NCBI GenBank assembly: GCA_027923505.1 | Contig: BROI01000015.1 | Coordinates: 248,001 to 312,000, forward strand | Length of the DNA stretch: 64,000 bases | Direction of reading: 5' to 3' | From: Mayamaea pseudoterrestris | Lineage: Eukaryota | Shown: positions 1 to 47,461 of the stretch, one piece after another | Layout of the letters: each line of letters starts with the position of its first letter | How positions within the stretch are numbered: the first letter of the stretch is position 1 | The notes under the pieces: generated by a model | Seen by the model: only the letters and a program-made list of their open reading frames with translations | Told to the model about the DNA's origin: nothing | Databases searched by the model: none | Position numbers and translations under genes: made by a program

Positions 1-235
1 CTCGCCACTACACGAATACGACTGCACTCTCGTCGCAAACTAGTAGTTCTATATTGTGAGCTTATCGCTACATCGCTACATCGACCACTCGGAAGATCAT
101 CCGATCAATCCGTTTCTTTCAATCACATTACATCAGTCGTAACTGGTCGTTCCATTCATACAACGCATCCACACGACGGTTGCGCACTTTCTTCATTCAC
201 ATGTAAGAAGCCCCCCCACAAAAGTACAGAACGCA

Positions 236-817
236 CCGCTTCCAGGTAGGTGTTACCGACATTGGCAGCCCAAAACTTAAGGTCGTTCAGTTCAGCTAAC
301 AAAGCTATAGTTCGGATGCTTTGCATAGAGACAACACCGGAGTAGGCAGAGTCCTTGGGCGGAGTGGTTGAATGTCCCCCAGTGATGAGTCCGGCCTTAC
401 GTTGTAGGTCGTTCTTGCAGTCAAAGACAAGATGCGCGTTGATGCGTTTCCAATCACTTTCCATGAAGGCACCAATGCCCCTGTCAATGAAAGTGTCATA
501 CTTGTGTAGCTGCTCCATCTCAGTCTTGATGGCGTCAGCCCATAGTGTGTTTCCATTAGCAGCGTCAAGGTTGCTTGCTTCCTTCCAAGTATTAGGAACT
601 TGAACGCCAAACTTATAAGGTGCTTCTTGGACATGGTTCTTCTTTGCAGCCTTGTACATGCGGTTAAACAGTTTAGTGCATCCTGCCATGTGCTTCAAGC
701 GCTTCCATCCAGCCTTGTCCAACATACCCTTGTGCTTGCTGTACTCGGCAACGGTGACAGGGTCAGACTTTACAATCAGTGCGAGTGGTTCCCAGGTCTT
801 CTTGCCATTTGCCCATT
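236..817 (-). mobile_element. Fragment of a second, diverged Ty1/copia (CoDi-like) pol: chromo-like linker plus RT N-terminus
   Basis: ORF 156..851 contains KWANGKKTWEPL, YKFGVQVP, NGNTLWADAIKTEM, HLVFDCK..RKAGLITGGH and ANVGNTYLEA. These are degenerate copia RT motifs, homologous to but distinct in DNA from the array element. Similarity ends near 236 and is cut at 817 by LTR1. Confidence 0.85.
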
Positions 818-1218
818 TGACACGATGCAGTTCCAGTTCGTACGGCTGCAACGATTCCTCACCCTCTGTAGTCGGTTTCCAAGTGAGCGGGATGATCAGT
901 CCTTTACCTTGGTTTATCCTACAGGGGTCTTATCCTACAAAACGCTAGTTGATTAAGCAGTTCTCTAGAAAGTGAGTTGATTTACGATCGGTCGAGAAAG
1001 AGCGATTGATCAGATGGCTCTTTCAAGACCATTCACGATAGTGAATACTAATCTTGTTTAATCGTGCCTGCGGCTGGCACACATGCAATATTTCAATGAC
1101 GTAGTTGTGAGTAGATGTCTTTTCTGGTACCGCAACGGAGGTTCGAGTACTATGCTCGTGCGCCCCCGGCGACGTCTAGGTTCGCGTCAAGCGACTGGAC
1201 TAGATCGTCATTGTGACA
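818..1218 (-). repeat. 3' LTR of copy 1 (401 bp)
   Basis: Minus strand reads TGTCACAATG...CATCGTGTCA (TG..CA, imperfect terminal inverted repeats). It is preceded by the purine tract AAGGGGAG (1219-1226) and occurs 4 times in the window. Confidence 0.92.
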
Positions 1219-3178
1219 CTCCCCTTGTAGGTGTGCCAGGACAGGTGTAAGCTCAATGAGCTCCCCTGGAGTCGGCTCCCCTTGAGGCAGTGACGGGTCC
1301 ATAAGGTAGAATTCGAGTTCTCCAGGATCCAAGGTTTCGCCACGCCAGAACAGTAATGGTTTGAGTAGGGGCCATGCGTCGATGTAGGGTAGGTATTTGG
1401 TAAGCGCGTCGGAAGCGTTTTCCTTGCCAGCAATCTTGACGAACTTGATAATTCCGGCTGCTACACACCACCGGATACGGTGATATGCGAGGGCATTGTG
1501 GCGCTTGGTGAGTGTGGATGTAGGCACTGTACACTGCGTGATGACTGATTGGTTATCACCGAGTAGCCATGAAGAGGACTCGATGGGAACACCCATTGCC
1601 ATGAGTGACGCGCGTATGCCTAGGATATGGTCGGTTGCAACGCGTCCGCTCATGAGTTCAGAGCCAAAGGTCGCGTGTTCGACGGTATCTTGAAGTTTGG
1701 CAAACCACTTGAACGGAGTCTGCTGAATGAAGTGAAGGATTCCAGTGCATGCTTTGCCGGTGACTTTGCAATGCATCAGGTTGGCATCTTTGAGGGTAGT
1801 AAGGCGAACTGTCTTGCCCTTTGGTTTCGGCCAGAGTGAAAGGACCTCTTCCTTGGGGTTGTCGTAGACGGTTTGTTGCCAGTCATAGGTTGGTGAGTCG
1901 CCGAAGATGATTTCGTTCTGCGGCCACTGGGTGCGAAAGCGGATGGCTGCCTCGGGAAACTTGCGAAGGTAGCCGCATACACGCTTTACTCGGTCGAGGT
2001 GTCCAATGCGAGGCTGTCCGCGGAAGCGTGACAGGCAGGCGGTGGCACTGCAGATATCGAATCGGCCAAGGGTGATCGCCCACTGAAGGGCTCCGACAAA
2101 CGATTGGTAGATCTTAATGTCCGACTCCCCTAAAAGAGACGTCTGGTCGAGTTCCGGGTGGTCATGAGAGTCGAGTGGAGAGCTGTACTTTGGTGGTGGT
2201 CCGTTGAATGTACGCTCGTAGTTGGCTAGAAGCTTGGTGATGTAGGTCTTGGTGCCCCAGAATAGTGTTCCGTCAGGGTCGCGTCCGAAGTCACTGCCTA
2301 GATGGTACTCTGGGCATCCAACGCCCTTGAGCTTGAACTTGTACTTGTTGCGAAGAAGTCGTAGAATGCGCCCGGGTCAATCATGATTGCCATAAGGTCA
2401 TCGACGTAAGTGCAAATGTATTCGTAACAATGGCCAGCATCGCGAATCCAAACGTCTGGATCGGCGTACAAGGCTTTGAAGCCTTCCGCTTGAAGCGCGT
2501 CCGCGAGCCGCTCCTGGAATTGTGCTCCACTTGTGCATAGGCCATAAAGTGCTTTGTAGATAATGAGTGTGTGGCCTTCCAAGTTGCCGAACTCAGGCCA
2601 GCGATGAAGTAAATCTTTTCTTTGGTTTTGGCTTCGAGGTAAGCATTTCCGATGTCGCCTACCATGGGGGTGAGTCCATTCAACTCCCCTATCGCCAGCG
2701 CTAGGCGCAGCGATTCGAGTGAAACGACGCTCGAGTATGAGTCGTCGACAGGATCAGTAAGGTGTCCACCAGCAACCATCCGAGCCTTGTGACGAAAGTC
2801 TTGCTTGCAGTCGTAGACCCAGATAGTGCGAATCTTTTGATAGCCTTCGGGAGGCGCGGCATTCAATCCGAGATCAATGAAGGTGTCGTATTCGAACAGG
2901 CTTGACAGCTCTACCTTCTCCGCGTTGGTCCATTTGGTATGCCAGAGTTCTTCTTGAAACTTTCGAGCTTCCTTTGGATCGCGTGGTACCTTGACGCCGA
3001 ACTTATGTCAAATGCTGCGTCGTTGCTTGGCTTGGTTTACGGTTTGACGGGCGATACGTGCGCGTCGGGCTGCGTCGCGTAGGAACTTCCAGCATTTCTT
3101 ATTGAGTAGTCCGTTTGCCTCGGCGTAGCGAGCGCAGGAAATGATGTCGTCGCGTGCTAAAGCGTTCAATGGCTCCCA
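818..3178 (-). mobile_element. Ty1/copia (CoDi-like) copy 1, 5'-truncated: RT-RNase H-PPT-3' LTR (2361 bp)
   Basis: RT motifs (KARMVAGGH, DIGNAYL, KALYGL, YVDD) and copia RNase H (ATFGSEL, GDNQSVI, KRHNALAYHRIR, ENASDALTK). Frameshifted. Appears identical to 3179-5539. Confidence 0.93.
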
Positions 3179-3579
3179 TGACACGATGCAGTTCCAGTTC
3201 GTACGGCTGCAACGATTCCTCACCCTCTGTAGTCGGTTTCCAAGTGAGCGGGATGATCAGTCCTTTACCTTGGTTTATCCTACAGGGGTCTTATCCTACA
3301 AAACGCTAGTTGATTAAGCAGTTCTCTAGAAAGTGAGTTGATTTACGATCGGTCGAGAAAGAGCGATTGATCAGATGGCTCTTTCAAGACCATTCACGAT
3401 AGTGAATACTAATCTTGTTTAATCGTGCCTGCGGCTGGCACACATGCAATATTTCAATGACGTAGTTGTGAGTAGATGTCTTTTCTGGTACCGCAACGGA
3501 GGTTCGAGTACTATGCTCGTGCGCCCCCGGCGACGTCTAGGTTCGCGTCAAGCGACTGGACTAGATCGTCATTGTGACA
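3179..3579 (-). repeat. 3' LTR of copy 2 (401 bp)
   Basis: Same sequence as 818-1218 at offset 2361, with PPT adjacent. Confidence 0.92.
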
Positions 3580-6497
3580 CTCCCCTTGTAGGTGTGCCAG
3601 GACAGGTGTAAGCTCAATGAGCTCCCCTGGAGTCGGCTCCCCTTGAGGCAGTGACGGGTCCATAAGGTAGAATTCGAGTTCTCCAGGATCCAAGGTTTCG
3701 CCACGCCAGAACAGTAATGGTTTGAGTAGGGGCCATGCGTCGATGTAGGGTAGGTATTTGGTAAGCGCGTCGGAAGCGTTTTCCTTGCCAGCAATCTTGA
3801 CGAACTTGATAATTCCGGCTGCTACACACCACCGGATACGGTGATATGCGAGGGCATTGTGGCGCTTGGTGAGTGTGGATGTAGGCACTGTACACTGCGT
3901 GATGACTGATTGGTTATCACCGAGTAGCCATGAAGAGGACTCGATGGGAACACCCATTGCCATGAGTGACGCGCGTATGCCTAGGATATGGTCGGTTGCA
4001 ACGCGTCCGCTCATGAGTTCAGAGCCAAAGGTCGCGTGTTCGACGGTATCTTGAAGTTTGGCAAACCACTTGAACGGAGTCTGCTGAATGAAGTGAAGGA
4101 TTCCAGTGCATGCTTTGCCGGTGACTTTGCAATGCATCAGGTTGGCATCTTTGAGGGTAGTAAGGCGAACTGTCTTGCCCTTTGGTTTCGGCCAGAGTGA
4201 AAGGACCTCTTCCTTGGGGTTGTCGTAGACGGTTTGTTGCCAGTCATAGGTTGGTGAGTCGCCGAAGATGATTTCGTTCTGCGGCCACTGGGTGCGAAAG
4301 CGGATGGCTGCCTCGGGAAACTTGCGAAGGTAGCCGCATACACGCTTTACTCGGTCGAGGTGTCCAATGCGAGGCTGTCCGCGGAAGCGTGACAGGCAGG
4401 CGGTGGCACTGCAGATATCGAATCGGCCAAGGGTGATCGCCCACTGAAGGGCTCCGACAAACGATTGGTAGATCTTAATGTCCGACTCCCCTAAAAGAGA
4501 CGTCTGGTCGAGTTCCGGGTGGTCATGAGAGTCGAGTGGAGAGCTGTACTTTGGTGGTGGTCCGTTGAATGTACGCTCGTAGTTGGCTAGAAGCTTGGTG
4601 ATGTAGGTCTTGGTGCCCCAGAATAGTGTTCCGTCAGGGTCGCGTCCGAAGTCACTGCCTAGATGGTACTCTGGGCATCCAACGCCCTTGAGCTTGAACT
4701 TGTACTTGTTGCGAAGAAGTCGTAGAATGCGCCCGGGTCAATCATGATTGCCATAAGGTCATCGACGTAAGTGCAAATGTATTCGTAACAATGGCCAGCA
4801 TCGCGAATCCAAACGTCTGGATCGGCGTACAAGGCTTTGAAGCCTTCCGCTTGAAGCGCGTCCGCGAGCCGCTCCTGGAATTGTGCTCCACTTGTGCATA
4901 GGCCATAAAGTGCTTTGTAGATAATGAGTGTGTGGCCTTCCAAGTTGCCGAACTCAGGCCAGCGATGAAGTAAATCTTTTCTTTGGTTTTGGCTTCGAGG
5001 TAAGCATTTCCGATGTCGCCTACCATGGGGGTGAGTCCATTCAACTCCCCTATCGCCAGCGCTAGGCGCAGCGATTCGAGTGAAACGACGCTCGAGTATG
5101 AGTCGTCGACAGGATCAGTAAGGTGTCCACCAGCAACCATCCGAGCCTTGTGACGAAAGTCTTGCTTGCAGTCGTAGACCCAGATAGTGCGAATCTTTTG
5201 ATAGCCTTCGGGAGGCGCGGCATTCAATCCGAGATCAATGAAGGTGTCGTATTCGAACAGGCTTGACAGCTCTACCTTCTCCGCGTTGGTCCATTTGGTA
5301 TGCCAGAGTTCTTCTTGAAACTTTCGAGCTTCCTTTGGATCGCGTGGTACCTTGACGCCGAACTTATGTCAAATGCTGCGTCGTTGCTTGGCTTGGTTTA
5401 CGGTTTGACGGGCGATACGTGCGCGTCGGGCTGCGTCGCGTAGGAACTTCCAGCATTTCTTATTGAGTAGTCCGTTTGCCTCGGCGTAGCGAGCGCAGGA
5501 AATGATGTCGTCGCGTGCTAAAGCGTTCAATGGCTCCCAAGTCATTGAGTTGTCTTCCCACACGACTTTGATGTTGTACATGGAGCCTTCCATCCGCCGG
5601 ATTGCTTTGTGAGTGGCCCTTCGTGCGATAGGATTGCTTTTAAACGTCCAGTTGTGTTCAGGATCGTTTACCTTTGCTGTTTGGTCTCCTACCAGAGTCG
5701 CATGAATTGATACAGTTCGTTTTCGCCATTTTGAGTAGGAACTTGATGTTATGATGGTTGCCGCGTCCATGGTTTCGAAGCCAGGAACTATTTCGCTCGC
5801 TGGCTCCCCATCCCGAGTTGCCAAGTAAACGTTGATTGACAAGTTCTTCAGGCAGAGCAGTAGTAAATCTGATTGGTCCGTTGATGCGCTTGAGGACGGT
5901 GGTGCCGCTGGTAGACTGCTTCGATTTAATGGTTCATTCCAGAACTCGGGTCCATCGCCGGCTTTTGGGAACTTCATCAGTGGGTAGCCCTCTTCGGGAG
6001 CTTGGTGCGAAAGTTGAAGTCTCTGACTTCTACGAACATGTCGCTTTCGAGTATGACTTGTGGTAAATCAAGAGGATGTTTGATTAAGATCGCCTCACTA
6101 GCCGCTATAATGCCGGGCTTACAACTTGATGTGTTTCGTCCAAGACCCAGTACGTTAGAGCATCACCGACGTTATCAGCTACCCCGACGAAACGTCCAGC
6201 GCGCTCATTGGTTTGGTTGAGCGATGTAGAGTTTGCGCTGTATCGAACGGGCTGCCACCAGTGGTAGTTGAGGTAGGCAGAGATATCGGGTACTTCATTG
6301 TATACCTTTTGATATGGGGTCATGCCACCGAGACGTGACTGGGACATGAGGGCGAGTAGAGCTACGATGTGTAGAGTGCATAGCAGCCAGGTTGGTGCAG
6401 GCGATCCGGTTCGATCCATGTTGACATTGACAGTGCGCTCGACGTCGCCGATAACGCGTTCCGCTGGATTCTGCTGTTGGTTTTCCGGTTCGCTGAC
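3179..6497 (-). mobile_element. Ty1/copia copy 2, 5'-truncated within integrase: INT C-part, chromo-like linker, RT, RNase H, 3' LTR (3319 bp)
   Basis: Integrase segment (SEPENQQQNPAER, TPYQKV..PDISAY, GRFVGVADNVGDALTYWVL) lies upstream of RT and RNase H, giving the copia order INT-RT-RH. Confidence 0.93.
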
Positions 6498-6900
6498 TGA
6501 CACGATGCAGTTCCAGTTCGTACGGCTGCAACGATTCCTCACCCTCTGTAGTCGGTTTCCAAGTGAGCGGGATGATCAGTCCTTTACCTTGGTTTATCCT
6601 ACAGGGGTCTTATCCTACAAAACGCTAGTTGATTAAGCAGTTCTCTAGAAAGTGAGTTGATTTACGATCGGTCGAGAAAGAGCGATTGATCAGATGGCTC
6701 TTTCAAGACCATTCACGATAGTGAATACTAATCTTGTTTAATCGCTGCCTGGTGGCTGGCACACATGCAATATTTCAATGACGTAGTTGTGAGTAGATGT
6801 CTTTTCTGGTACCGCAACGGAGGTTCGAGTACTATGCTCGTGCGCCCCCGGCGACGTCTAGGTTCGCGTCAAGCGACTGGACTAGATCGTCATTGTGACA
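6498..6900 (-). repeat. 3' LTR of copy 3 (403 bp)
   Basis: Plus strand TGACACGATG...CATTGTGACA. Carries ATCGCTGCCTGGTGGCTGGC versus ATCGTGCCTGCGGCTGGC in LTR1/2. Confidence 0.92.
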
Positions 6901-8203
6901 CTCCCCTTGTAGGTGTGCCAGGACAGGTGTAAGCTCAATGAGCTCCCCTGGAGTCGGCTCCCCTTGAGGCAGTGACGGGTCCATAAGGTAGAATTCGAGT
7001 TCTCCAGGATCCAAGGTTTCGCCACGCCAGAACAGTAATGGTTTGAGTAGGGGCCATGCGTCGATGTAGGGTAGGTATTTGCGGCAAGCTCCTTGCCAGC
7101 AATCTTGACGAACTTGATAATTCCGGCTGCTACACACCACCGGATACGGTGATATGCGAGGGCATTGTGGCACTTGGTGAGTGTGGATGTAGGCACTGTA
7201 CACTGCATGATGACTGATTGGTTATCACCGAGTAGCCATGAAGAGGACTCGATGGGAACACCCATTGCCATGAGTGACGCGCGTATGCCTAGGATATGGT
7301 CGGTTGCAACGCGTCCGCTCATGAGTTCAGAGCCAAAGGTCGCGTGTTCGACGGTATCTTGAAGTTTGGCAAACCACTTGAACGGAGTCTGCTGAATGAA
7401 GTGAAGGATTCCAGTGCATGCTTTGCCGGTGACTTTGCAATGCATCAGGTTGGCATCTTTGAGGGTAGTAAGGCGAACTGTCTTGCCCTTTGGTTTCGGC
7501 CAGAGTGAAAGGACCTCTTCCTTTGGGGTGTCGTGACGGTTTGTTGCCAGTCATAGGTTGGTGAGTCGCAAGATGATTTCGTTCTGCGGCCACTGGGTGC
7601 GAAAGCGGATGGCTGCCTCGGAAACTGCGAGGTCGCCGCATACACGCTTTACTCGGTCGAGGTGTCCAATGCGAGGCTGTCCGCGGAAGCGTGACAGGCA
7701 GGCGGTGGCACTGCAGATATCGAATCGGCCAAGGGTGATCGCCCACTGAAGGGCTCCGACAAACGATTGGTAGATCTTGATGTCTGACTCCCCTAAAAGA
7801 GACGTCTGGTCGAGTTCCGGGTGGTCATGAGAGTCGAGTGGAGAGCTGTACTTTGGTGGTGGTCCATTGAATGTACGCTCAGCTGGCTAGAAGCTTGGTG
7901 ATGTAGGTCTTGGTGCCCCAGAATAGTGTTCCGTCAGGGGTCGTCCGTTCGACGCCTAGATAGTACTCTGGGCATCCGACGCCCTTGAGCTTGAACTTGT
8001 ACTTGTTGCGAAGAATGTCGTAGAATGCGCCCGGGTCAATCATGATTGCCATAAGGTCGTCGACGTAAGTGCAAATGTATTTGTAACAATGGCCAGCATC
8101 GCGAATCCAAACGTCTGGATCGGCGTACGGAGGCTTTGAAGCTCCGACAGCGTCCTGAAGCCGCGCGTGGAAGCATGCGCCGCTTGTGCGTAGGCCGTAG
8201 AGT
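6498..8203 (-). mobile_element. Ty1/copia copy 3, 5'-truncated within RT (1706 bp)
   Basis: RT C-part, RNase H and LTR. Shares indels with copy 4, e.g. the deletion giving GTATTTGCGGCAAGCTCC and the +2 bp LTR variant. Confidence 0.92.
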
Positions 8204-8606
8204 TGACACGATGCAGTTCCAGTTCGTACGGCTGCAACGATTCCTCACCCTCTGTAGTCGGTTTCCAAGTGAGCGGGATGATCAGTCCTTTACCTTGGTT
8301 TATCCTACAGGGGTCTTATCCTACAAAACGCTAGTTGATTAAGCAGTTCTCTAGAAAGTGAGTTGATTTACGATCGGTCGAGAAAGAGCGATTGATCAGA
8401 TGGCTCTTTCAAGACCATTCACGATAGTGAATACTAATCTTGTTTAATCGCTGCCTGGTGGCTGGCACACATGCAATATTTCAATGACGTAGTTGTGAGT
8501 AGATGTCTTTTCTGGTACCGCAACGGAGGTTCGAGTACTATGCTCGTGCGCCCCCGGCGACGTCTAGGTTCGCGTCAAGCGACTGGACTAGATCGTCATT
8601 GTGACA
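8204..8606 (-). repeat. 3' LTR of copy 4 (403 bp)
   Basis: Same as LTR3 at offset 1706, with PPT at 8607-8614. Confidence 0.92.
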
Positions 8607-11600
8607 CTCCCCTTGTAGGTGTGCCAGGACAGGTGTAAGCTCAATGAGCTCCCCTGGAGTCGGCTCCCCTTGAGGCAGTGACGGGTCCATAAGGTAGAAT
8701 TCGAGTTCTCCAGGATCCAAGGTTTCGCCACGCCAGAACAGTAATGGTTTGAGTAGGGGCCATGCGTCGATGTAGGGTAGGTATTTGCGGCAAGCTCCTT
8801 GCCAGCAATCTTGACGAACTTGATAATTCCGGCTGCTACACACCACCGGATACGGTGATATGCGAGGGCATTGTGGCACTTGGTGAGTGTGGATGTAGGC
8901 ACTGTACACTGCATGATGACTGATTGGTTATCACCGAGTAGCCATGAAGAGGACTCGATGGGAACACCCATTGCCATGAGTGACGCGCGTATGCCTAGGA
9001 TATGGTCGGTTGCAACGCGTCCGCTCATGAGTTCAGAGCCAAAGGTCGCGTGTTCGACGGTATCTTGAAGTTTGGCAAACCACTTGAACGGAGTCTGCTG
9101 AATGAAGTGAAGGATTCCAGTGCATGCTTTGCCGGTGACTTTGCAATGCATCAGGTTGGCATCTTTGAGGGTAGTAAGGCGAACTGTCTTGCCCTTTGGT
9201 TTCGGCCAGAGTGAAAGGACCTCTTCCTTTGGGGTGTCGTGACGGTTTGTTGCCAGTCATAGGTTGGTGAGTCGCAAGATGATTTCGTTCTGCGGCCACT
9301 GGGTGCGAAAGCGGATGGCTGCCTCGGAAACTGCGAGGTCGCCGCATACACGCTTTACTCGGTCGAGGTGTCCAATGCGAGGCTGTCCGCGGAAGCGTGA
9401 CAGGCAGGCGGTGGCACTGCAGATATCGAATCGGCCAAGGGTGATCGCCCACTGAAGGGCTCCGACAAACGATTGGTAGATCTTGATGTCTGACTCCCCT
9501 AAAAGAGACGTCTGGTCGAGTTCCGGGTGGTCATGAGAGTCGAGTGGAGAGCTGTACTTTGGTGGTGGTCCATTGAATGTACGCTCAGCTGGCTAGAAGC
9601 TTGGTGATGTAGGTCTTGGTGCCCCAGAATAGTGTTCCGTCAGGGGTCGTCCGTTCGCCGCCTAGATAGTACTCTGGGCATCCGACGCCCTTTAGCTTGA
9701 ACTTGTACTTGTTGCGAAGAATGTCGTAGAATGCGCCCGGGTCAATCATAATTGCCATAAGGTCGTCGACGTAAGTGCAAATGTATTTGTAACAATGGCC
9801 AGCATCGCGAATCCAAACGTCTGGATCGGCGACGGAGGCTTTGAAGCTCCGACAGCGTCCTGAAGCCGCGCGTGGAAGCATGCGCCGCTTGTGCGTAGGC
9901 CGTAGAGTGCTTTGTAGATGATGAGTGTGTGGCCTTCCATGTCGCCGAACTCAGGTCCAGCGATGAAGTAAATCTTTTCTTTGGTTTTGGCTTCGAGGCG
10001 CATTTCCGATGTCGCCTACCATGGGAGTGAGTCCATTCAACTCCCTCGCCGCGCTGCAGCGATTCGAGTGAAACGACGCCGAGTATGAGTCGTCGACAGG
10101 ATCAGTAAGGTGTCCACCAGCAACCATCCGAGCCTTGTGACGAGTGTCTTGCTTGCAGTCGTAGACCCAGATAGTGCGAATCTTTTGATAGCCTTCGGGA
10201 GGCGCGGCATTCAATCCGAGATCAATGAAGGTGTCGTATTCGAACAGGCTTGACAGCTCTACCTTCTCCGCGTTGGTCCATTTGGTATGCCGGAGTTCTT
10301 CTTGGAACTTTCGAGCTTCCTTTTGATCCGCGTGGTACCTTGACGCCGAACTTGTGTCGGTTGCTGCGTCGGTTTGGCTTGGCTTACGGTTGACGGGCGT
10401 ATACGTGCGCAAGGCCGGGCTGCGTCGCGTAGGAACTTCCAGCCTTTCTTGTTGAGTAGTCCGTTCGCCTCGGGCGAGCGAAGCGCAGGAAATGATGTCG
10501 TCGCGCTAAAGCGTTCATGGTCCCAAGTCGTTGAGTTGTCTTCCCACACGACTTTGATGTTATACATGGAGCCTTTCCATCCGTCGGATTGCTTTGTGAG
10601 TGGCCCTTCGCGATAGGATTGCTTTAAACGTCCAGTTGTGTTCAGGATCGTTACCTTTGCTGCTTGGTCCTTTTTGAACAATTCGCAGAGTCGGATGTAA
10701 TCGATGACTTCTTCAGCTTCGTTTTCGCCGATTTTGAGTAGGGGGAACTTGATGTTATGATGGTTGGCTGCGTCCATGGTTTCGAGCTTGATCGATTTCC
10801 GGCTCGCATGGCTCCCCATCCTGAGTATGCCAAGTAAATGTTTGATTGACAAGTTTCAGGTGAGAATGCAGAGTAAATCGATTGGTTCACGTGGATGCGC
10901 TTGAGGCGGGCTGATGGCGCCGCTGTAGGGACTGCTTCCGATGAATGGTTCATCTCAGTGAACTCGGTCGTTGGGTTCAGTAGAACGGTTCATCAGTGGC
11001 CCCTCTTCTTCGGAGCTTTGGGTGCCGAGTTGGAAGCTCTCTTGAGTCCACCTTCGGTGTATACGAACATGTCGCCTTCGGGAAGCTCGACTTGTGGTAA
11101 ATCTAAGACGGATGTTTGATTAAGATCGTCTCGACAGCCGTTGTTCGGGCGACAACTTGATGTGTTTCCCTCCACACCCAGGATAGAGCATCACCAACGT
11201 TATCAGCTACCCCGACAGAAACGTCCAGCGGTCATTGGTTTGTGTTTGGCGATGTCGGCGTTTGCATCGAACGGGCGTTACCAGTGGTAGTTGAGGTAGG
11301 CAGAGATATCGGGTACTTCATTGTATACCTTTTGATATGGGGTCATGCCACCGAGACGTGACTGGGACATAGGGCTAGTAGAGCTACGGTGTGTAGAGTG
11401 CATAGCAGCCAGGTTGGTGCAGGCGATCTGGTTCGATCCATGTTGACATTGACAGTGCGCCGACGTCGCCGATCAACGCGGCGTCTGATTCTGCTTTGGT
11501 TTCGGTTGCGCTGACCCAGTGCTTATGGATCATAAACTGGCGTTCGATTTCAATCGCTCGCTGTTTTTCTTCCTTGGGCTGGCCTGATATTAGACCGAGT

Positions 11601-12210
11601 GGAGCAACCGCACGTTGATAAACTGCATGAGCGTCGACGGAACTTGTCCTTGTTCGCCACGGTAGACGCTAATCAATCGGCTCTGCATGCAAACGTATAG
11701 TTGCGCTGTTTGGCATCCGGCATGTCCAGGAATACCATCGTTGAGTGCGGGTGTGTCGGAGAATAGTGTGTCCATTGACTTCTTTTTCAGGTAGTCGACA
11801 ACATTCGCACCCGGGAAACGAAGTACGCAAATGGCGTCGAGGAAAACGTTGCTCGTGCGATAGAATTGGGTAGTGTTCTTGAGAGTCTCTTTGATCGATT
11901 GGTGGTGAACCAGTTGGGGACGAAGCATTTGTAAAATCTGGTCGCCAGAGGAACCACAGTCGGTGCCGGTCGGCCGGCTGGTCCAGAATATGGATTGCCT
12001 CCGGCTTCACAATTGCGGCATTGACCTGAAGCCATCACGGATCGTACATTTTCGGCAGTGTCTTCGTATTCGAACGTTGCGTCGTTGGGATTCGGAGCAT
12101 GGCTTGATTCGGATGTCGATATGGTTCCGCGTGCAAGTAGTGAGGGTAGTGAAATGTCATCCTGTTGTGGGTTCGTGTTGTAAGAAGCGTCATCGGGTAC
12201 AATGTGTTAA
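8204..12210 (-). mobile_element. Ty1/copia copy 4, longest (pre-integrase, INT, RT, RH, 3' LTR), heavily frameshifted; no 5' LTR or gag seen
   Basis: Contains the sequences of copies 1-3 uninterrupted across their breakpoints, plus SIKETLKNTTQFY and DTLFSDTPA integrase-proximal motifs. Right boundary is approximate. Confidence 0.88.
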
Positions 12211-12259
12211 GCCGCGTAAAGAAGCTGTATATTCCATACATTTCGTTCGTCATACTCAC

Positions 12260-14570
12260 CATGTCAATGCCAAAGAATCGACACGATCCAAAGATAACTG
12301 GATGCTTGGGCGAATAACGAAAGTGTACTTGGTCACATCCCATTGCCGGTCGCGATATCTCGGCAACCTCGGGGAAGTAGGTTTGACTTGGTACTCCCGT
12401 GGGCGAGTAATTAAATCGCCTCGGCTGTTTCGTCCGGCAATGGGCGTTCTTTTTCTTCTGGTTCCGAGCACCCGTTTCGCTACCGGCATCCTTCTTGACG
12501 GTTTCCTGAGCTTTCGGTTTTGACTGACCTTGCTTCTTGAGCTCACGAGTCGCTTTTCTTGTTTCTCCCATGCCTTGTGTGTTGTTCGTACTTTACCTTC
12601 TCCATCTTTTGACGTGTCGTGGTTGCCCTTGTACAGGGCCCGAGTTTCAAGTCTTCAATGTGCAATATTCTTGGCAAACGCTATTTAGAAAATCTTGGTC
12701 GTGCGATACGATAAGGAGTGTCTTTTTCCACTTTTGCAAGTACTCATCCAACCAAATGACGCGTTCACTGGTAAGCAGAACGGGCGTGAACGAGCGAGCA
12801 CAGCAATTTTGCGTTAACCGCCACTTCCTCGTTTGCAAGCAACAATAGCCATACAGAAAGCAACAATAGTCACAAAGAGAAAGGGTGACGTACAGTCGGG
12901 ACGGTTTGTTGGTTCATCAAGCCCAACAAGGTTGCTCTACAAGGGGCCCGAGCGGGCGGGAATTCTCATTCTCCAGCCTCCACTAAACATCTTGGTCGGC
13001 TTGGTCTGCATGTCCATGGTGAAACCTAGACCAAACAAAATTCTGCGCGCCTTGGCTTCGGCAGAATCGGATCCCATGTTCGTTAGTTCGTCCACAACGG
13101 TTTGAAGGCGATCAATTTTTTCCTCCGACTCGTCACCATTGTCAATGGCGGCCATGAGAGCCTTTTCCTCAAGATCCTCGTAGCTTGTCAGCCTTCAATA
13201 CAGCTTCCGCGGCGGGCGTATCGTCGCACGCTTCCTGCTCCACGTACAAAAAGTCGATGCGTGGCGGCACCTCCAAATCTTGCGTCGTTTTCAGCAACGT
13301 TCTTGCCGCGTCCTTCCGTTACAACAGGTTAGCTCAATCGGTCTTTCAGCCAACACATATACAATCAAATGCTGCACGTTCCTGCCACCATGGCACGCTT
13401 ATGAAATCCGTCTCTGCAAAACATATGCACGCGACAACAACGTACCATTTGGACCGACCAAACCGTAACGTCTACCGTGCGCAATTGAAAGAGCTGCATC
13501 CTTGAACAATATTTTTCCCGCTGCACTAATACTAAATGAAGGAACGTTGATGTCCAATGAATTTTCCCAATTGGAGTCATTCTCGTTCACGGCCGTTTGA
13601 CTGCAAGCAAACTGCGCTCCCTCGCGTGAAGCCTTGGCCGCCGCCATTTCATACTGTGCTTCACGCTGAGCCGCCTGCTTGGCCTTGATGAGCTTTTGCG
13701 TTCCTTGTTGCTCAATTTCTTCCCATCCGTCCCCGGGGAATCGTTCATCGTGTCGCTGTCACCGCCATCTTCCGCCGCTTTTGGCCAGCGACTTGTCCGT
13801 CCGTGGTCGTCCGGTGCGCCGTACAAGACTGCATCGTCACCATCTTGTTGCTCGTCGACGTCAGCCTTGTCGACTTGCTCATCGTACGCGTCAGGCATGG
13901 TGGCAAGTTGATTCATGCCACTGGCAACCTTTTTCTTTTGTTTCTTGTCCTTGTCGTCTACAACCTTTGACGCTGCTTCATCGTCCGCTGCCTTGGTCGC
14001 TGCCAGCTTTGCTTCCATTTGTATTTCAAACTTTGACTTTTTCTTTGCTTCTGGTTTAGATGGCTGGGACGGAGCGACTGCAGCAGGTTTCTCGACAACC
14101 TTTTCGTCTTCCTCGTCGTCACTCTCATCAAGCCTTTGCTTTGCTTGCTTGGGTTTCTTGTCCTTCTTCTCCTTCTTTTCTTTCTTGTCCTTCTTCTTCT
14201 TCTTGGACTCACCATCACCACTCATCAGAGCTCCCCATCCATCGTCTGCTAGTTTCGTCGTGACTTGCTGTACGTCATCATCGTCGTCTTTGGCGGCGGC
14301 AGGCACATCATTGTCGTCGCTATCAGATCCAGCCAGTGCAGCAGCCATGACAGCCGACGCCTTTTTCTTTTGATTCTTCTTGACAGATTGTTGCTTGGCT
14401 CTACCTTTTTGAGCAGGAGGGCCATCGTCTTCGTCATCATCCTCGCTATCACTTCCATAGTTTGTCTTTAACTTGCCACCCAAGAGCGCCGCCAAGTGCT
14501 CGTCACCGTTGTCATCGTCGTCAGAGTCATCCTGCTGCGATGGCTTTCCCTTATTCTTTTTACGAGCCAT
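12260..14570 (-). pseudogene. ABC-F (ABCF1/GCN20-like) ATPase gene, frameshifted and truncated before NBD2
   Basis: Lys/Asp-rich N-terminus from ATG 14570. Walker [14 protein letters not shown] is split by an intron starting ~13445. Also FSGGWRMR signature, [23 protein letters not shown], linker RELKKQGQSK and VHFRYSPKHPVIF..FGIDM, followed by a GTGAGT donor (~12259) running into copia sequence. Several frameshifts, which could be consensus errors. Confidence 0.85.
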
Positions 14571-14717
14571 GCTGATAATAAACTCAGAGTGGACGGTAGT
14601 GTACCGATAGTAAGCAGCGGGATTACAAGGGAAGACGCAACGACGAATGAGGTGATGATGAGCGAGCGGATTTCGTGGTGATCCGTCGGTGCGAGTACCG
14701 AAACGATTCACCTGCGC

Positions 14718-14965
14718 CAATTGCGCCACAAGGCAATAGTACGAAACAAGTGCCAGTGTCAATTACGTCACAAGGCAATAGTACGAAACGAGTGCCAGTG
14801 TCAATTACGTCACAAGGCAATAGCACGAAACGAGTGTCAGTGTCAGTTACGTCACAAGGCAATAGTACGAAACGAGTGCCAGTGTCAATCACGTCACGAG
14901 GCAATAGCATGAAACGAGTGCCAGTGTCAATTGCGTCCTATTTACTATTGCCTTTAGGACGCGAC
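14718..14965. repeat. 42-bp minisatellite, locus 1 (~5.2 units plus a short inverted partial unit)
   Basis: Unit CAATTACGTCACAAGGCAATAGTACGAAACGAGTGCCAGTGT, ending in GCGTCCTA-tttactattgcctt-TAGGACGC. Confidence 0.95.
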
Positions 14966-16718
14966 TTCCTCGCGATGCGGACGAGCCGCCAGAAGATGTC
15001 CATCTAAACTCAAAGGAACGACAGCTTTGGCTCCATTATTGTTTAATGTATTACAAATGAAAAGCATATCGGAAGGAATGATAGCTTAGTAGTGGCTCGA
15101 GCTGGTTGTGTTTTGGCATCAGACCAAAGTGTTCTCATTGACGTATTGACCGTCGACTGCTCCTTCGGCGTCTGCGTCTAGCCGCGAATAAAACATTATC
15201 TTTCTGCTGCAACCTCTGAATGTTACAGAAGGGACCAAGACAAGATGACGCTGCGAAACGGCCCGCTGATTTGATAGAGGCTGTTGCCAATCGATGCATG
15301 GCTGAGTGTCTGTGGAGCGACTCGTTGCATCACTTGGTTCAAGTGCCTCTGCAGAGCCAGGCCCTTTGACGAGCAGAATTGTATTAGTTTGCATTATCAG
15401 GCTCAAGAGAAAAAATATCCGTTTCGTTTCGAATCTTTTGCCGACATCATCGTCTCAGGTTCCCTTTTAAAACGCGACCAAAAAAGCGAATCTGGCCGGA
15501 CTGCAGAGCGGTCGACATGTTCGATTTCCGCGAAAACAACCGGCCTTTTGCACCCAGCAGCATCAGACGAGTCCAGTCCAGTATACAGTACATCTGCTGG
15601 CCCACCACTTTGCTTACGAGTTAAAGCCATCGTAAGCTGGACATTGCGGCTGGCACCCAAGCATGCGACCTTTTGCGGCAGTTTCTGTTGGCTTCATGGC
15701 CGGTGTCATATGCCATCAAGCATGCTGGAATCGCAACCACAGACTTTTGGACTATATAGAATCACATCAACAGCAGCAATCACGACCAAATTCAACGTTA
15801 GTTCAAAAGGATGACATTATAAAGATGACAAAGTATGATGACAAGCATGGTGACAAATCAAGCGACGAATCACCGCCCTCCTCGCACAAGGCGAGAAATA
15901 CCTCTGCGGGCAAGAGGCAACAAGCATCAAAGAAGCGTTGATGGGTGTTTACAGTGGTATTCGATTATTCGCATTCGAACTACGTTGTAGTAGTCGATTC
16001 ATAAGTAATAAGAGTACATCTTTGGAGACATGAGGCGACAACGACACATCATTGTAGTCCATCTACCTACTGCAATTCATAAACGACATACGATTGTATT
16101 TATCACTTTGTAAAACATTTGGCCAGTGGGGCGGTCATTGCCTTGAATGGGATAAATCGCCTCCCTTTCGCGCATCTAAGCATTCGTCGCATGGTCATAC
16201 ACCCTTGCAGCCGTCTCTGTAGTTGTGTTTGTGTCACAAGACGGCGACATTGACTTGTCGATGTATTCACAACTTGGCGCAGAGCAAGTAAGAGTCGAAA
16301 GAAAATATGGCGTTGCTTCTGATTTCTGATCGCGCGACAAGCGACAAGTCAGAGCCGCACACTCTTCACTCACAAGTAAAAGAAAGCGGCCATCTCGGCC
16401 AATTCTCACGGGATTAGACGCAAGTAACTTTGTAATGCTTTTAGAGCTACTACATGTACTACCGCACAACGTGCCTACTGGTTGATAGTGGGTCGTGTGT
16501 GTTAGCAATCGAAAATGTGAGGCGTGCAGTTGAAAACGCAGCGGTTTCAGCAAATGACTCATGCAGATTAGTAATGACGTTTCTTTCCTTCGTTTTCAGT
16601 ATTGCATGCATTTGCGTCACACTCCGAGAGTTTCGTGAGAATCGCGGGTGCGACCACGGCGCACTCATCTGCCATAATGTTAGCACCAATTCAAGTCCGT
16701 GCTTGATCGTCGACTGAA

Positions 16719-19694
16719 ATGGCAACATCCAACGGCACCTTTCTTGCTTTGGCTCCCGCGTTAAATGGAGTTCTATTGCCACCCAATCGCAAGAAACCTC
16801 GGCCAAACCAAAACGCCTTGGTTGTATTGACATCGTCGGAACGTCACGATCAAGATTTCATTTTCGGACGCTACGAATTACGACTCGCTCATTGGCAGAG
16901 CTGCTTATGCTTTGGTGATTTTGGAACGAAAAGAATTTGTGCTTTCGAGCGGCGTGACTCGTCTGTTTTCGCTTCCGACGAAGGCGACCAAGGCAAGGAT
17001 GCATCATATAGTCAACGAAGCAAATCATCGGCGTTTTGTGAACGCTGCGAACGTCCTTGGACCAAGCATATACCAAAAAAGTTCCTCAAAGTTTCTGGCT
17101 GCAACAAGACGAAGGACGAACGCATCGATGGAGTAGCTGTACCTCTCTTTATTCATGCCCGAGGTGATGGCACTTACCCAGTCATGGACAAGATGCAACT
17201 TAACGGCAAGAACTTGTGTGACTATGGCTTTGATAAAAGCAGTGGCCGAACAGCGAAAGATTTCTGGGCCGGTCCGCTGTTAATTCAAGAGGGCGACTCG
17301 ATTAATTTTCGGCCGATTTGCGACGACGAATTGCCATTAGAATTTCTAGTCGTTGCACACCAGAACGGCAGGCGTTTGCCAGAAACAAAAGCGACAACAA
17401 TTGTGCATCAAATTACTGACAAACCGATAGACGAGAGTGAGCAAAAGGGTTGTGCTTTGCCAATGAGCCCTGATGACACGGAATCTCCGCTGAGAACGCA
17501 GGCGTACGATGAGAAGTGGCCTATTCGTCCTGCGTCGGAATCTAGGTTTCCACACTTGTTTCAAAGCAGCGAATCACTAGAACACGACAGAGCAGAAGAA
17601 AAAGAAGAAGTTATGCTGCAGCAACTATTGCCGTTAGAAGACTCGCCACTGCTGTTCACGCCGCCGATTGCGGCGATGGCGAAAACGGCGATGCTCGTAG
17701 GTGAGATGCCGGCAAAGCCAGCTCAACAAAATAACCTGTTTGACGGACAATCAACCGCAGATGAGCACGAAGATTGTCGTAAAGTGCGTAAGTCTCCTTT
17801 TGACAAGGTGCTAACGACTATGCAGATTCCAGCAAGCCTGGAACAGGTCGTTGGTATTGCCACTGTTAGTGTGGACGAGAACGTTGTTACATCTGACTCG
17901 AAACGCGAAACAGAGAGCGCTGATACCAAGGCGGCTGGTCCCAAGCTTTACTTCGTTAGCTGCAACCGGCATGCCGACATGTTCAATAAGCAGATTCGTG
18001 AACGAGCGAGGCGCAAGGCTATTGCTCGCGGGGCCACAATCATGGACACTTTTGATCGATTAAATCCACCGAATTACTTGATTGTTGGTAATTCGTTGCG
18101 AATGGATGAAGGTGAATTGATCAATGAGGATTTAAAGTTTTACAGCGTCCAGGACCTGCATCAGTACATGGAACAGCACGGCGTTGTCTTGGCGCGGCTC
18201 AAGTGGGTGATGAAGGCGGATGACCTTGAGCGATTTGGTCCGGTCACTGGCGACGAGACTTATCGGCTGGCGCTGCACAGTCGGAAGTCTTTAAGTAAGC
18301 AACCGGAAGCTGGAGTAGAGTCGCCACACAAGCGTCAGAGAGGCATTCCGCTGGATAGTCAGATCACCGAACGCAAGAATTCAGATCTTGCCGACCTATT
18401 TACTGAGCTCTCCGAGCTATACCGAGACGCTCCTATGGACGATCAGGATCTATGGCGAGCGTATACGTTTAACAAAGCCGCGAGTGTTATGCGCCATCTG
18501 ACATTCGATGTCACATTCGAAAATGTCGACGACCTGAAGGATCAGTACGGGCTGAAGGGGAGTTGCGTGGATATTGCGAAAGAGTATGTCACCACAGGAG
18601 GCTGCCTAAGGCGACAGTCTTTAATCGCGGATAGGGATCGCGCGGCTATTCGAGACTTTACGGGTATTTGGGGCGTTGGTCCAAAGAGAGCAAAGGAGTT
18701 GCTGAGTTTGGGCTATCACGATATCGAAAGTTTGCGTACAGCAACTGAATTAGGAAAGCTAATGTGGCAGCGCAACGAGTATTTGGGCTTGAAGTATTAC
18801 GAAGACATTAACGAGGAAATGGATCGTGACGAAGCTACGCACATTGTCAAGATTGTAACAACTGTAGCCAACAGCGACCAATTTTATCCATCTGCTCAAG
18901 TCCACGCCATGGGGTCTTATAGGCGGATGAAACCTACAAATGGGGATGTGGACTTTATCATCACCGATCCTGCTTGGCTGAATGAGGTGCCCCCCACGTT
19001 TCTCGGACAACTTGTGGATAAATTGCACGACGATGAATTCATTTTGCATCACCTTACTTTGATTCGAGGCATGAACCCCGACCGGTTTGAGACGCTTGAA
19101 CCGTCGGAAAAGAAGTTCATTAAACCATTGGCAAGTGTTTCCTCGACGAAAAGGAAAGACAAGCGATCCTACACTTGGATGGGTATTTTCAAGTCACCGA
19201 CAATAAGTGGCAAAGTCAGACGGGTTGATATTAAGGTGTATCCATACTCGGAGTTTGTATATGCCTCGTTATACTTTACCGGTGAGTTTAAAATAATGAC
19301 ACGCTTAATACGAGTATGTGGGAGCGGCTGCGCTCATTTGTGAATATATCAAATTTCAGGCAACGGTCATTTCAATCGCGCAATGCGCTTCTGGTCAAAG
19401 AAGATGATGGGATATAGACTGGACGACCATGGGTTGTGGATGCTGGACGGAAGCGGTAAGCTTCGACTCGATGACGCAGGGTACGCAATTCGCGCGAAGG
19501 AGCCAGACGGCAGCATTTTCAGACCAACGACGGAGAAAGACGTGTTTGACAAACTCGGCCTCGTTTGGAGAGAGCCTCATGAAAGAGACGGCTTTGCTGC
19601 ATTACAGAGCAAAGACGATAAAGAACAGATGGATCTGTCGGTTAATATGGGAGACATTATGTCGGATACGCGCGAGTATACATGGGTTGCTTAG
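16719..19694 (+). CDS. X-family DNA polymerase (Pol lambda/beta-like) with BRCT-like domain and long N-terminal extension
   Basis: HhH GIWGVGPKRA, catalytic GSYRR..GDVDF and RRVDIK. Removing intron 19282-19359 (GTGAGT..TTTCAG) gives YFTG|NGHFNRAMR. C-terminal TEKDVFDKLGLVWREPHER. Confidence 0.92.
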
Positions 19695-19948
19695 ATGAGC
19701 TGGTTGTGACGGCCATGTTTGTTTCATTGTTCATTCATCACCGACCGGTGCAAGGCTGCTCGATGGTGTGCCACGGAAGAAAGCCAAATTCGCAGTTACT
19801 CAGATGTTGGGCTTGGAAGTATCATTGTGACTTGCGAGTGGGAGCTGATTCTGTCGGTACGATAGATGCTGTCGCTGGCGGCCATGGTAAAAAATGGGCG
19901 ATGCTTGTCGAAACGCGACCACTCTTTCATTCACAGTGCAAATTTGGA

Positions 19949-20133
19949 AGTGAAAACTGCGTCACGAGGCAATAGTAGAAAACGAGTGCCAGTGAAAACT
20001 GCGTCACTTGGCAATAGTACGAAACGAGTGCCAGTGAGAACTGCGTCATATGGCAATAGTATGAAACGAGTGCCAGTGAAAACTTCGTCATCAAGGCTAT
20101 ATTAGGAAACGAGTGCCAGTGAAAACTACGTCA
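19949..20133. repeat. 42-bp minisatellite, locus 2 (~4.4 units)
   Basis: Unit AGTGAAAACTGCGTCA.xxGGCAATAGTAxGAAACGAGTGCC, same family as locus 1. Confidence 0.93.
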
Positions 20134-20301
20134 GCAAAGCTCGCTCACTGTCAGGATCCGTTTCGTGGACACGCACTCGATGTCGTACCAAGATGATGTT
20201 GAAGTTGTCGGTCCTCGTATGCTCCCATCGGTTGCGACTGCGACGATGACATTGCATGAAGTCGTTCTACCCTCGTTTTGGAACATTATTTATTCGCAAC
20301 C

Positions 20302-20824
20302 ATGAATAACGTTATGATGGCTCAACTCATGAAGGATATGCAGGTGTGTAAATGGATTATTTGTCGCACGTAAAGCGAATATCGATGGCGACATTCCTGT
20401 CGTTCGATCGAGAACAGGCAACGGCTCGACCAGTTCGACGGGAAAGGTGTCTTGATTGAAATCTGTGCATATTACCTCATCGTTCTGTAATTGTAGCCTC
20501 TCACACATTCTCATCATGACTGTATCATAGGACCCAGAAATGGTTCGCGAGGCGCAGAAACTAATGAAGGACCCCGCCTTTCAGGCGCAAATGCGAACCA
20601 TGATGCAAGCTCCTCAATTCCAACAGGCTATGCAAAAGACACAGGATGCCATGAAGGATCCTGAAAAGCTCAAGGAGTTGGAAGAAAAGGCCAAGCAGGC
20701 TCTTGAAGAAGGAAACAAGAAGCTTTCCGAGATTGAATCGGCGCGGACACAAGATGGCGACCAGAAGCCAGCAGCAGATGGGTCTGATGACATCGAAGAC
20801 GTTCCCAACCTTGGCTTGAATTAG
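20302..20824 (+). CDS. Small STI1/HOP (DP-repeat)-like protein
   Basis: Exon 20302-20343 (MNNVMMAQLMKDMQ), intron 20344-20530, exon 20531-20824 (DPEMVREAQKLMKDPAFQAQM..MKDPEKL). 5' end uncertain. Confidence 0.6.
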
Positions 20825-21272
20825 TATTCGAGTTGGAAGCATGCTTTTTGCGTGAGGCAGGCGTGGCGTATTCCAGGGGCTCGGCGCTTGGCACGAAGAT
20901 GGTTTTCGGTCACGTATGTAGTTTTACCCATGACTGCAGCTAATCAAATCAACTTGTATACATCCTATAGCACATGTTGCATGGATTGGTGCACGACGAG
21001 ACGTGAGACGCAAGCTAATGTAGGTCCATCCAGCGTTCACATTCATATCATACTATGCATAGCTACATGAGGTGCTCATGACCTAATGGCTCGTCCGTTT
21101 CCAGATTCTCGGAAGGCGCGCCGCTTCGCGTCACGCGTTTTTGTTCGACGCGACCATGACGAATGAATGAACGCACAATGCTTGAAATCGTCGCCTGACG
21201 CGCTATTAAACTTAAAGCAATCAACAGACGACTTTCTATACCCCGGGAAAATAAATCATCAATGCGAAGATT

Positions 21273-22088
21273 ATGCGACAACGGGCTCTTCCTTTGGTAG
21301 CTTCTCCGTCACGGCCTTTACCATCAGCAGCAGCAGCAGCAGCAGCAATTGGCGAGACGAAGACGATGCTTTCGCACCGAAGAAATCGCTCACAATCTGC
21401 CGAAAAGACAAATAGCGGCGGCAGTAGCACCAGCAGCTCCTGGGAGATTACTTCTTCGCCTCAGCCTGACTCTGCAAAACATCTACATTCCTTTCATTAC
21501 CCAAACGGTTATCAAAATCATCACCGCAAACATGTTGCTCTTCAAAACGTTCACCTCTTTTACCGGACGCCTCTTCACGTATCGGACGCTGATTATCGAG
21601 CGTTTATTGGTCTAACAAAGACTCCTGCTTCTGCTCCTATTTCCCGACAGTGCTGCTTGAGCGTTTGCGTAGGATTCTCGTGGATTGCTGTTGGTTTCTT
21701 CCTGCTAATTTACGTTTTACTCCGTTTCCAACCACTCTACATTCCTCATGCACTTTCACATCATTATATTCAACGCAATGGAAAACTCGTCAAGGTTAGC
21801 GACGTTGGATCTAGCCCTTTAGCAACGGTTGCTCTGCATACAATGTTTGCCTATCTCGCTGTCGCTCTCATTTGCGGATATTACGCCAATCCCAACAAGT
21901 GGCGCCAGCAAAAGTACCAAGACATTCCCGAGGCGACTTTGCCAATCACGGCGAGGGCAAATACGGGTCCGATTGATTTGTACGAGGATAGCATTTGCGA
22001 GCGTGCGTCGGCCGGCTTCAAAAAGTGGATGCTTGTAAAAGGCTATCGAAGAGCGAGGCGCAAACAGGTCGAAACCAAAACGGTTTGA
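21273..22088 (+). CDS. Hypothetical membrane protein with two predicted TM segments
   Basis: 271-aa ORF with hydrophobic CCLSVCVGFSWIAVGFFLLIYVLL and TMFAYLAVALICGYY. Confidence 0.6.
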   Translation: MRQRALPLVASPSRPLPSAAAAAAAIGETKTMLSHRRNRSQSAEKTNSGGSSTSSSWEITSSPQPDSAKHLHSFHYPNGYQNHHRKHVALQNVHLFYRTPLHVSDADYRAFIGLTKTPASAPISRQCCLSVCVGFSWIAVGFFLLIYVLLRFQPLYIPHALSHHYIQRNGKLVKVSDVGSSPLATVALHTMFAYLAVALICGYYANPNKWRQQKYQDIPEATLPITARANTGPIDLYEDSICERASAGFKKWMLVKGYRRARRKQVETKTV

Positions 22089-22260
22089 CAGTTATTGGAA
22101 TTGTTGGTGTGCAAAGATTATACAACCTTGCAGATATCTATAATAAGTAGACATTTTGGTTTACTGCGTCGCGTTGGATTCGACGAATATACCGGTAGTC
22201 AAGAAAGACTCTGCCTGCCTATTACGAATATCTCGGTAGCTCAGATCCAGATCCGATCCA

Positions 22261-24134: not shown

Positions 24135-24457
24135 GTCAGAAGAGTCGAGCTTTATATGTAATACTACCACTTCGGTAGGTATGGCAGCAAGGGTAAGGAC
24201 TACCGGTAGTTACAAACGCTTAGTCTTGCCAGTCTGGAACTGGCAACAAAAACCAGCCCCATCCGAATGATCAGCGATCGGCGCGACATTCAATGTCGGA
24301 CCGGTAGTCCTAATGCGCGGCAACCGCGCCGTTTCCAACTCGTCAACCTCCATTCACTGTCAATCGCTTCGACTTCGTCGATCTTATCGTCGGAACGACC
24401 TACTGGACCTTGCCCATCTCTTACTTTCTACTGTAAAGTAAAGAAACAACTGCCATC

Positions 24458-24970
24458 ATGCCGCCCAAACGAATTAAAAAGGTCATGGCGACGCCAATCA
24501 ACGTTATATTTGGACACTTGCAGGTATGTCCAAATTCCCAGCAAAATCGACATTCAATTACAAAACGTTCATTACCACAATGTTTGTCAATTATTCGGAA
24601 CTCTCCACTACTGTTGCTTTAAATATGACTCTGATATTGCCGGGCATATTGCTGTACGTCTTGTCGCCTCGCCGCCTCCGCTCATCGTTTCTCTCATCTT
24701 GACTAATTACAGAAAAAGACTCGCGTCCGCATTTGGCTCTACGAAGATACTCGCATGCAAATGGAAGGACAAATTATTGGTTTTGACGAATACATGAACT
24801 TTGTTTTGGACGATGCCGTTGAGATTGATACGCGCAAGTCGCAACGACTGTCGGTCGGCCGCATTCTGCTAAAGGGAGACGCAATCACCATGATACAGGA
24901 AGCTCAGCCAGTCAGGCCGGTTCAACAGGAAGAGGAACAGGCGCCAGTAGATGGTGGTGGCGATGCGTAG
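24458..24970 (+). CDS. SNRPE: Small nuclear ribonucleoprotein Sm E
   Basis: Exon 24458-24523 (MPPKRIKKVMATPINVIFGHLQ), intron 24524-24712, exon 24713-24970 (KKTRVRIWLYE..EGQIIGFDEYMNFVLDDAVE..GRILLKGDAIT). Confidence 0.95.
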
Positions 24971-46246: not shown

Positions 46247-46250
46247 TATG

Positions 46251-47447: not shown

Positions 47448-47461
47448 CAGTGTACTAATTG

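Follow-up and report, generated by a model that had tools for sequence, protein, structure and literature searches.

Nesting of LTR retrotransposons, including insertion of an element into its own kind, has been described by Jedlicka et al. (2019, PMC6911290). In the diatom Phaeodactylum tricornutum, Maumus et al. (2009, PMC2806351) described a nest of the CoDi elements PtC25 and PtC75 that was split into halves by recombination. Tandems in which the tail of a transposable element is joined to an internal sequence have been read as nests (McGurk and Barbash 2018, PMC5932611), and the retrotransposon-derived tandem repeats CRM1TR and CRM4TR have also been attributed to nests (Sharma et al. 2013, PMC3648361). 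Two further systems resemble the locus studied here: truncated one-LTR circles, a described product of Ty1 autointegration (PMC4751563), and homotype false duplications at contig boundaries, a known assembly error (Rhie et al. 2021, PMC8081667).

We analysed a window of 64,000 nucleotides (G000:C15:248001-312000), the whole stretch of DNA under study, within a 30.6-Mb assembly of 41 contigs. The window contains an array of copia sequence from a family that we call A, which has a 401-bp TG...CA LTR, an interior of about 6.47 kb and 5-bp TSDs. The assembly was searched with the family-A LTR, and the best 40 of 48 candidates were scored. TG...CA LTRs, a PPT and 5-bp TSDs (the TSDs on the copies on C5, C2, C23 and C1) identify family A as Ty1/copia. 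The C23 copy carries an uninterrupted frame of 2124 codons, in which RVT_2 (PF07727) was matched at codons 1558-1772 (E 5e-21). Upstream of RVT_2, at about codons 1010-1125, lie what we take to be the integrase core motifs, read by eye, and this arrangement is the domain order of Ty1/copia. The integrase region gave no Pfam match, and a PDB sequence search returned nothing below E 0.7. The nearest Atlas clusters, with a score of 0.97 and 2 members each, carry RVT_2 and, in those with a recorded phylum, come from Bacillariophyta, a lead towards the diatom CoDi lineages. A metagenome scan with the family-A LTR end gave 0 matches, and comparison of the family-A PBS with its own LTR found no exact match of 10 or more bases.

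The surroundings of family-A copies are often a 169-bp satellite or another copia element, and one insertion of the latter type elsewhere in the assembly has a recognisable TSD. Family A had the same orientation as the neighbouring element at 6/6 LTR ends beside copia families B or C (L004, L006, L007, L018, L020 and L027), one of these ends being imprecise. The same orientation was found at both non-duplicate family-A self-joints (L013 and window position 6497), and beside the 169-bp satellite both orientations occurred, at 3 and 2 ends. By these orientation counts, same-strand stacks are the rule for family A; with such small numbers, the bias possibly reflects a polarity of integration or of retention. 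We also observed that the solo LTR C22:287314-287714 (L021/L129) shares its U3-side flank with the C5 element L022 over the 22-30 bases read and has a different flank on the other side, which suggests that the two loci recombined or that they were misjoined through the LTR. The 3' LTRs L025 (C13:152693) and L026 (C10:108911), from separate loci, are each missing the first 24-25 bases at the U5 end, almost the same stretch.

The limits of the array units were set by self-BLAST of the window and by mapping on a natural full family-A copy. The results showed four minus-strand units spanning 818-12205, each made of a whole LTR and part of the interior; on the plus strand, every unit starts with the LTR and then enters the interior. 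Unit 1 (818-3178, 2361 bp), a probable false duplicate, has its LTR at 818-1218 (401 bp) and internal positions 1-1962. Unit 2 (3179-6497, 3319 bp) has its LTR at 3179-3579 (401 bp) and internal positions 1-3006. Unit 3 (6498-8203, 1706 bp), also a probable false duplicate, has its LTR at 6498-6900 (403 bp) and internal positions 1-1333, and unit 4 (8204-12205, 4002 bp) has its LTR at 8204-8606 (403 bp) and internal positions 1-3713. An earlier sequence-only reading had described four same-strand copia units with only a 3' LTR and with LTR-exact joints. Both methods confirmed this description, with the end of unit 4 placed at 12205 instead of 12210. The absence of a 5' LTR, PBS and gag, also claimed in that reading, was borne out: none was found in the array at 818-12205, and unit 4 stops at about codon 865 of the 2124-codon frame, ahead of the integrase core.

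The self-joints 3178|3179, 6497|6498 and 8203|8204 were precise to a single base, and possible microhomology amounted to 0, 1 and 0 bases, respectively, in keeping with the earlier claim that they show none. Chance is not the explanation, since three random breaks in an element of 6.9 kb would not all hit the terminal base of the LTR. A shared-LTR tandem formed by LTR-LTR recombination was rejected because the units restart at internal positions 1962, 3006 and 1333 and not at the PBS. At joint 817|818, family A enters the different copia family B without microhomology. At the joint of units 2 and 3 (6497..6498, hereafter joint 2|3), the integrase region meets the U5 end of the LTR, as a nested insertion would give: an exact LTR terminus on the interior of the host, without microhomology. 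The proposed integrase-type joint is supported at 817|818 and at 6497|6498, the latter being the only self-joint listed in a sequencing run. Joints 817 (into B) and 3178 (between units 1 and 2) lie about 24 bases apart in a homologous W-E-P-L stretch before the RT, probably by coincidence.

To the left of the array lies a minus-strand pol fragment of family B (215..817), the host of the family-A stack, which is about 90% identical to many other family-B copies among the best 40 of 51 candidates scored. It is preceded by the remainder of a minus-strand family-C 5' LTR (1..204), of which LTR positions 1-393 of 470 are present. The family-C element extends left beyond the window as far as a 169-bp satellite array.

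Comparison of the units revealed that neighbours in the array are not independent. Units 1 and 2 showed 0 differences in 2361 bp, unit 1 being equal to the start of unit 2; over reference positions 26-2333 they had 0 differences from each other, compared with at least 32 to any other locus. Among 7 separate family-A loci, the closest pair differed at 16 sites. Units 3 and 4 were 99.8% identical, with 4 differing sites in 1706 bp, and unit 3 shared 16/16 indel events with unit 4, of which 13 of the 15 beyond position 500 were deletions. None of the 16 recurred in 10 copies outside the window, and context-driven systematic sequencing errors were therefore rejected as the source of the match between units 3 and 4. 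Units 1 and 3 each share consensus errors with the adjacent copy, as homotype false duplications do. The sequence-only reading, correct about the joints, had mentioned neither the 100% identity of units 1 and 2 nor the 99.8% identity of units 3 and 4, errors included.

Relative to the open-frame copy, unit 4 contained 109 indel events, mostly deletions, and 95 substitutions, whereas the decayed copy C20a had 174 substitutions (86 of them CpG transitions) and 2 indels. Unit 2 included a stretch of raw-read quality at about 5637-6133, with 46 indels in 500 reference bases, and the CpG-decayed allele in its RT region is real. Judged by their pattern, the indel-rich stretches of units 2 and 4 appear to be raw long-read errors. 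Real ageing was rejected as the source of the indels in units 3 and 4, since decayed copies carry mostly substitutions, about half of them CpG transitions, and since such indels continue beyond the array in a host gene whose other allele is intact. As a separate observation, units 1 and 2 (818-5539) showed 0 substitutions against the open-frame copy in the first 1000 reference bases and 28 in reference positions 1400-2340, of which 16 were CpG transitions. They may thus represent a recombinant or converted copy, in which a young LTR and RNase H were joined to an older RT segment.

The right end of the array, in a feature that the sequence-only reading had not mentioned, is a non-LTR break (12205..12215) that carries unit 4 onto the inside of a gene, with about 3 bases of microhomology; it is either a misjoin or a rearrangement. 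The gene presumably encodes an ABC-F-type ATPase, a family name taken from motifs recognised by eye and not from a profile search. Its 5' part (12206..14570, minus strand) is frameshifted by indels, and its copy on C1 is intact and runs on through a second ABC domain. Positions 12215..48016 form a collinear second copy of C1:2256807-2210796 with 93-99% identity per block, either a haplotig or a segmental duplicate. This 36-kb stretch ends at satellite arrays on both C1 and C15, with multi-kb insertions on C1. It is probably a retained haplotig joined into C15, and C15 may therefore be chimeric. No family-A sequence was found within C1:2240001-2270000. Indels relative to the C1 allele numbered 17, 16 and 19 per 500 bp over 12215-13714 and fell to 0 from 16438. 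Because the error pattern extends from unit 4 into the ABC-F-type gene, unit 4 and the break share one poorly supported stretch. Further right, the window contains a frame of 878 codons (16707-19343) that encodes domains of the DNA polymerase X family (lambda/beta), and a short tandem repeat with a unit of about 42 bp at 14694-14937, 19949-20137 and 63374-63666, which occurs at dozens of places in the genome.

Five sequencing runs contain the neighbouring genes, and we aligned the Logan contigs of four of them (X1 to X4) to one LTR plus the interior of the C23 copy. Two joints were listed in these four runs: the normal LTR-PPT joint, and a joint from 4606 to 8096 on L040, which corresponds to joint 2|3. 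The latter was present in X3 at a depth of 5.5, in a single contig whose shorter side comprised 23 letters, and was not among the joints listed for X1, X2 and X4; diverged single-locus pieces in X3 had depths of 5.2-11.2, and X3 may be the source of the assembly. Joints 1|2 and 3|4, the joints on C2 and the 12205 break were not among the joints listed in the four runs, nor was a non-duplicate-type joint on C1; as Logan contigs drop rare branches, this does not show that the joints are missing from the genome. One X1 contig, free of gaps and extending 30 and 29 bp beyond the outermost of 11 substitutions, fitted the allele of units 1 and 2 at these sites, indicating that this allele is real. 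A 1-bp deletion common to units 1 and 2 is absent from the X1 contig and is probably an error. The allele had a depth of 312 in X1, where three further single-locus variants had depths of 179, 196 and 210, a 1.5-1.7-fold difference; contig depth is no copy number. In X2 the PPT side was deeper (760) than the gag side (541-644), and such depth gradients are weak evidence.

The earlier reading had also suggested a search for 5' halves ending in the predicted target duplicates, which would support nesting. In the assembly, which may be incomplete, 0/31 exact LTR U3 ends carry the predicted TSD-bearing partner. When the partner of joint 2|3 was searched for directly, with up to 2 mismatches allowed, there were likewise 0 matches in this possibly incomplete assembly, in which the locus is cut at 12205. 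For a stack cut at one point, missing 5' halves are expected under nesting, assembly and circle explanations alike, and a single cut at 12205, real or not, removes every 5' half and so explains the polarity of the array.

Adjacent duplications were then counted in stretches picked for closely spaced matches, so the count is neither a genome-wide survey nor a rate. We found 12 adjacent duplications with 99.77-100% identity, of which 6 were LTR-exact, 2 came within 5 bp of an LTR end and 4 had no LTR end. Besides the two in the window (units 1/2 and 3/4), they comprise two on C2 (1117 bp on the left, 4437 bp on the right), one at C1:2447814 (2390 bp, 1 difference), one each on C34 (2523 bp), C30 (2033 bp), C27 (6286 bp) and C31 (604 bp), two on C33 (2870 bp, and 6265 bp at 99.86%) and a 397-bp duplication of a family-C LTR on C15. 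The LTR-exact cases are the two in the window, the two on C2, and one each on C34 and C33, with U5-to-interior joints in the window, on C2 left and on C34, and U3-to-interior joints on C2 right and on C33. The C2 locus (L033-L035, C2:1169699-1182505) holds a full element whose outer TSD is intact, with a piece identical to it on either side (0 differences in 1117 bp on the left and 0 in 4437 bp on the right). The pieces share 35 private variants, including 9 indels, with the central element, and the inner flanks (internal positions 716 and 2454) have no common TSD. C33:131739-144726 (L108-L109) also combines an intact outer TSD with perfect or near-perfect partial copies, and the joints on C2 and C33 are made by either the U3 or the U5 end. 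In 4/4 self-joints of duplicate type in family A, the piece is equal to its neighbour and to no other locus. Imperfect neighbours also exist: a family-A piece on C27 differs at 201 sites, and two neighbouring family-B copies on C1 have 89.9% identity. Because family-B indel counts are inflated by a noisy reference copy, only pair-private indels were used for that family (15, 37, 35 and 16).

Taken together, these results lead us moderately to favour a real two-copy, same-orientation nest of family A inside another copia family, to which false duplication has added units 1 and 3. On this explanation, a young Ty1/copia element of family A (401-bp LTR, 5-bp TSD) would have integrated into an older family-B element beside the 169-bp satellite array; at internal position 3006, this first family-A copy would in turn have received a second one in the same orientation. 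One break at 12205, an assembly misjoin or a real rearrangement, would then have removed everything upstream of internal position 3713 of the inner copy, taking with it the 5' LTR of this copy and the 5' halves of the host elements. A single cut through a same-orientation nest would leave polarised 3' halves that meet at LTR ends. Units 1 and 3 would be homotype false duplications, in which overlapping piece ends were written twice, with one end of the duplicated piece at the LTR terminus, a repeat boundary, and the other at an arbitrary point. Overlapping piece ends of this kind would also account for the mix of duplications elsewhere in the assembly. Two findings count against false duplication: the 1.5-1.7-fold depth in X1 leans to two real copies, and 6/12 of the perfect duplications end at an LTR terminus, as integrase joints also would. 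Among the options raised in the sequence-only reading, nesting with lost 5' halves and assembly effects fit best when combined.

Another history, in which all four units are real and family A inserted into itself three times inside B, with the 5' halves lost at the 12205 break, appears rather unlikely to us. It accounts for LTR ends that are exact and free of microhomology, for the presence of joint 2|3 in a run, and for the depths of the unit 1/2 allele in X1 and of the PPT side in X2. It also agrees with the same-orientation entry of family A into copia elements, with the self-insertion described in PMC6911290 and with the nest interpretation of tail-to-internal tandems in PMC5932611. Independent insertions, however, should match active copies and not the private variants of their host, and all four duplicate-type family-A self-joints match the neighbour and no other locus; on C2, moreover, the inner flanks lack a shared TSD while the outer TSD is intact. 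It would attribute the identity of neighbours to polishing with shared reads or to local gene conversion, and identity alone is no proof of false joints, since an assembler or polisher can write the same errors into two real neighbours. The opposite extreme, that no self-joint is chromosomal and that extrachromosomal circles or chimeric reads gave rise to the assembled array, draws on the raw-read quality of much of the array, on the break inside the host gene and on the lack of joint 2|3 among those listed for X1, X2 and X4. We regard it as very improbable, because the word depth of 5.5 at joint 2|3 falls within the range of single-locus alleles in X3, which a one-off chimera or a rare circle would not reach.

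Autointegration circles, made from the cDNA of the locus and recombined back into that same locus as LTR-exact tandem units, were the other option in the sequence-only reading, and we consider them improbable here. They predict exact joints without a TSD partner, identity of neighbours, and both U5-to-interior and U3-to-interior joints with the intact outer TSDs seen on C2 and C33; truncated one-LTR circles are a described product, as noted above for Ty1, and the X1 depth leans to two copies. Against this, about 12-15 near-identical targets exist in the genome, yet each circle would need to have found its parent locus again, on C2 even twice. Nor do circles account for the shared indels of a read-error kind, or for the four perfect duplications without an LTR end and the one that stops 5 bp short, and the only run-supported joint lies between units that are not identical. 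Retrotransposon circles are also generally held not to re-integrate (PMC10462705), and we found no report of chromosomal arrays built from autointegration circles in the literature searched. The general form of this idea, that the LTR-exact duplications are real and that two copia families copy parts of their elements alongside themselves through circles returning to the parent locus by either LTR end, would be of equally low probability. If true, it would reveal how suicide circles can give rise to chromosomal tandem arrays in satellite heterochromatin, and autointegration products, usually seen as dead ends, would rebuild chromosomal arrays.

Joint 2|3 is probably real and part of an ordinary copia nest that has probably been inflated by assembly duplication. 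Under this best reading, the locus adds one more copia nest at a satellite edge and has little biological weight. It carries a warning that the repeat-rich parts of this assembly contain error-identical tandem duplications which mimic integrase joints, so read support is required for other findings of tandem elements in the genome. A small lead is the tendency of family A to share the orientation of the copia elements in which it lies.

Compared with the nests described by Jedlicka et al. (PMC6911290), the locus is similar in having family A inside its own or a related family, with 5-bp TSDs as the norm and a repeat-rich niche. It differs in retaining 3' halves only, without a TSD pair, and in having its joints in pol and not in the 3' UTR. 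The PtC25/PtC75 nest (PMC2806351) is likewise a diatom copia element inside another copia family whose host halves were later separated; in that case both halves and the TSD were found, whereas here 0/31 LTR U3 ends carry a matching half. With the homotype and heterotype cases of Rhie et al. (PMC8081667), the locus shares adjacent duplicates of read length, low-quality consensus and a retained haplotype (12215-48016 compared with C1). Those cases were defined by read coverage and k-mer copy number, whereas the array is known here from sequence and run contigs. The one-LTR autointegration circles of Ty1 (PMC4751563) resemble the array in joining an LTR end to the interior without microhomology, but they are free circles, and the array is chromosomal in the assembly. 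Finally, the tail-to-internal (PMC5932611) and CRM1TR/CRM4TR (PMC3648361) tandems, thought to derive from nests or internal deletions, show the same head-to-tail arrangement of an LTR and a partial interior. In those tandems one joint is repeated many times, whereas the joints of the array are all different and occur once each.
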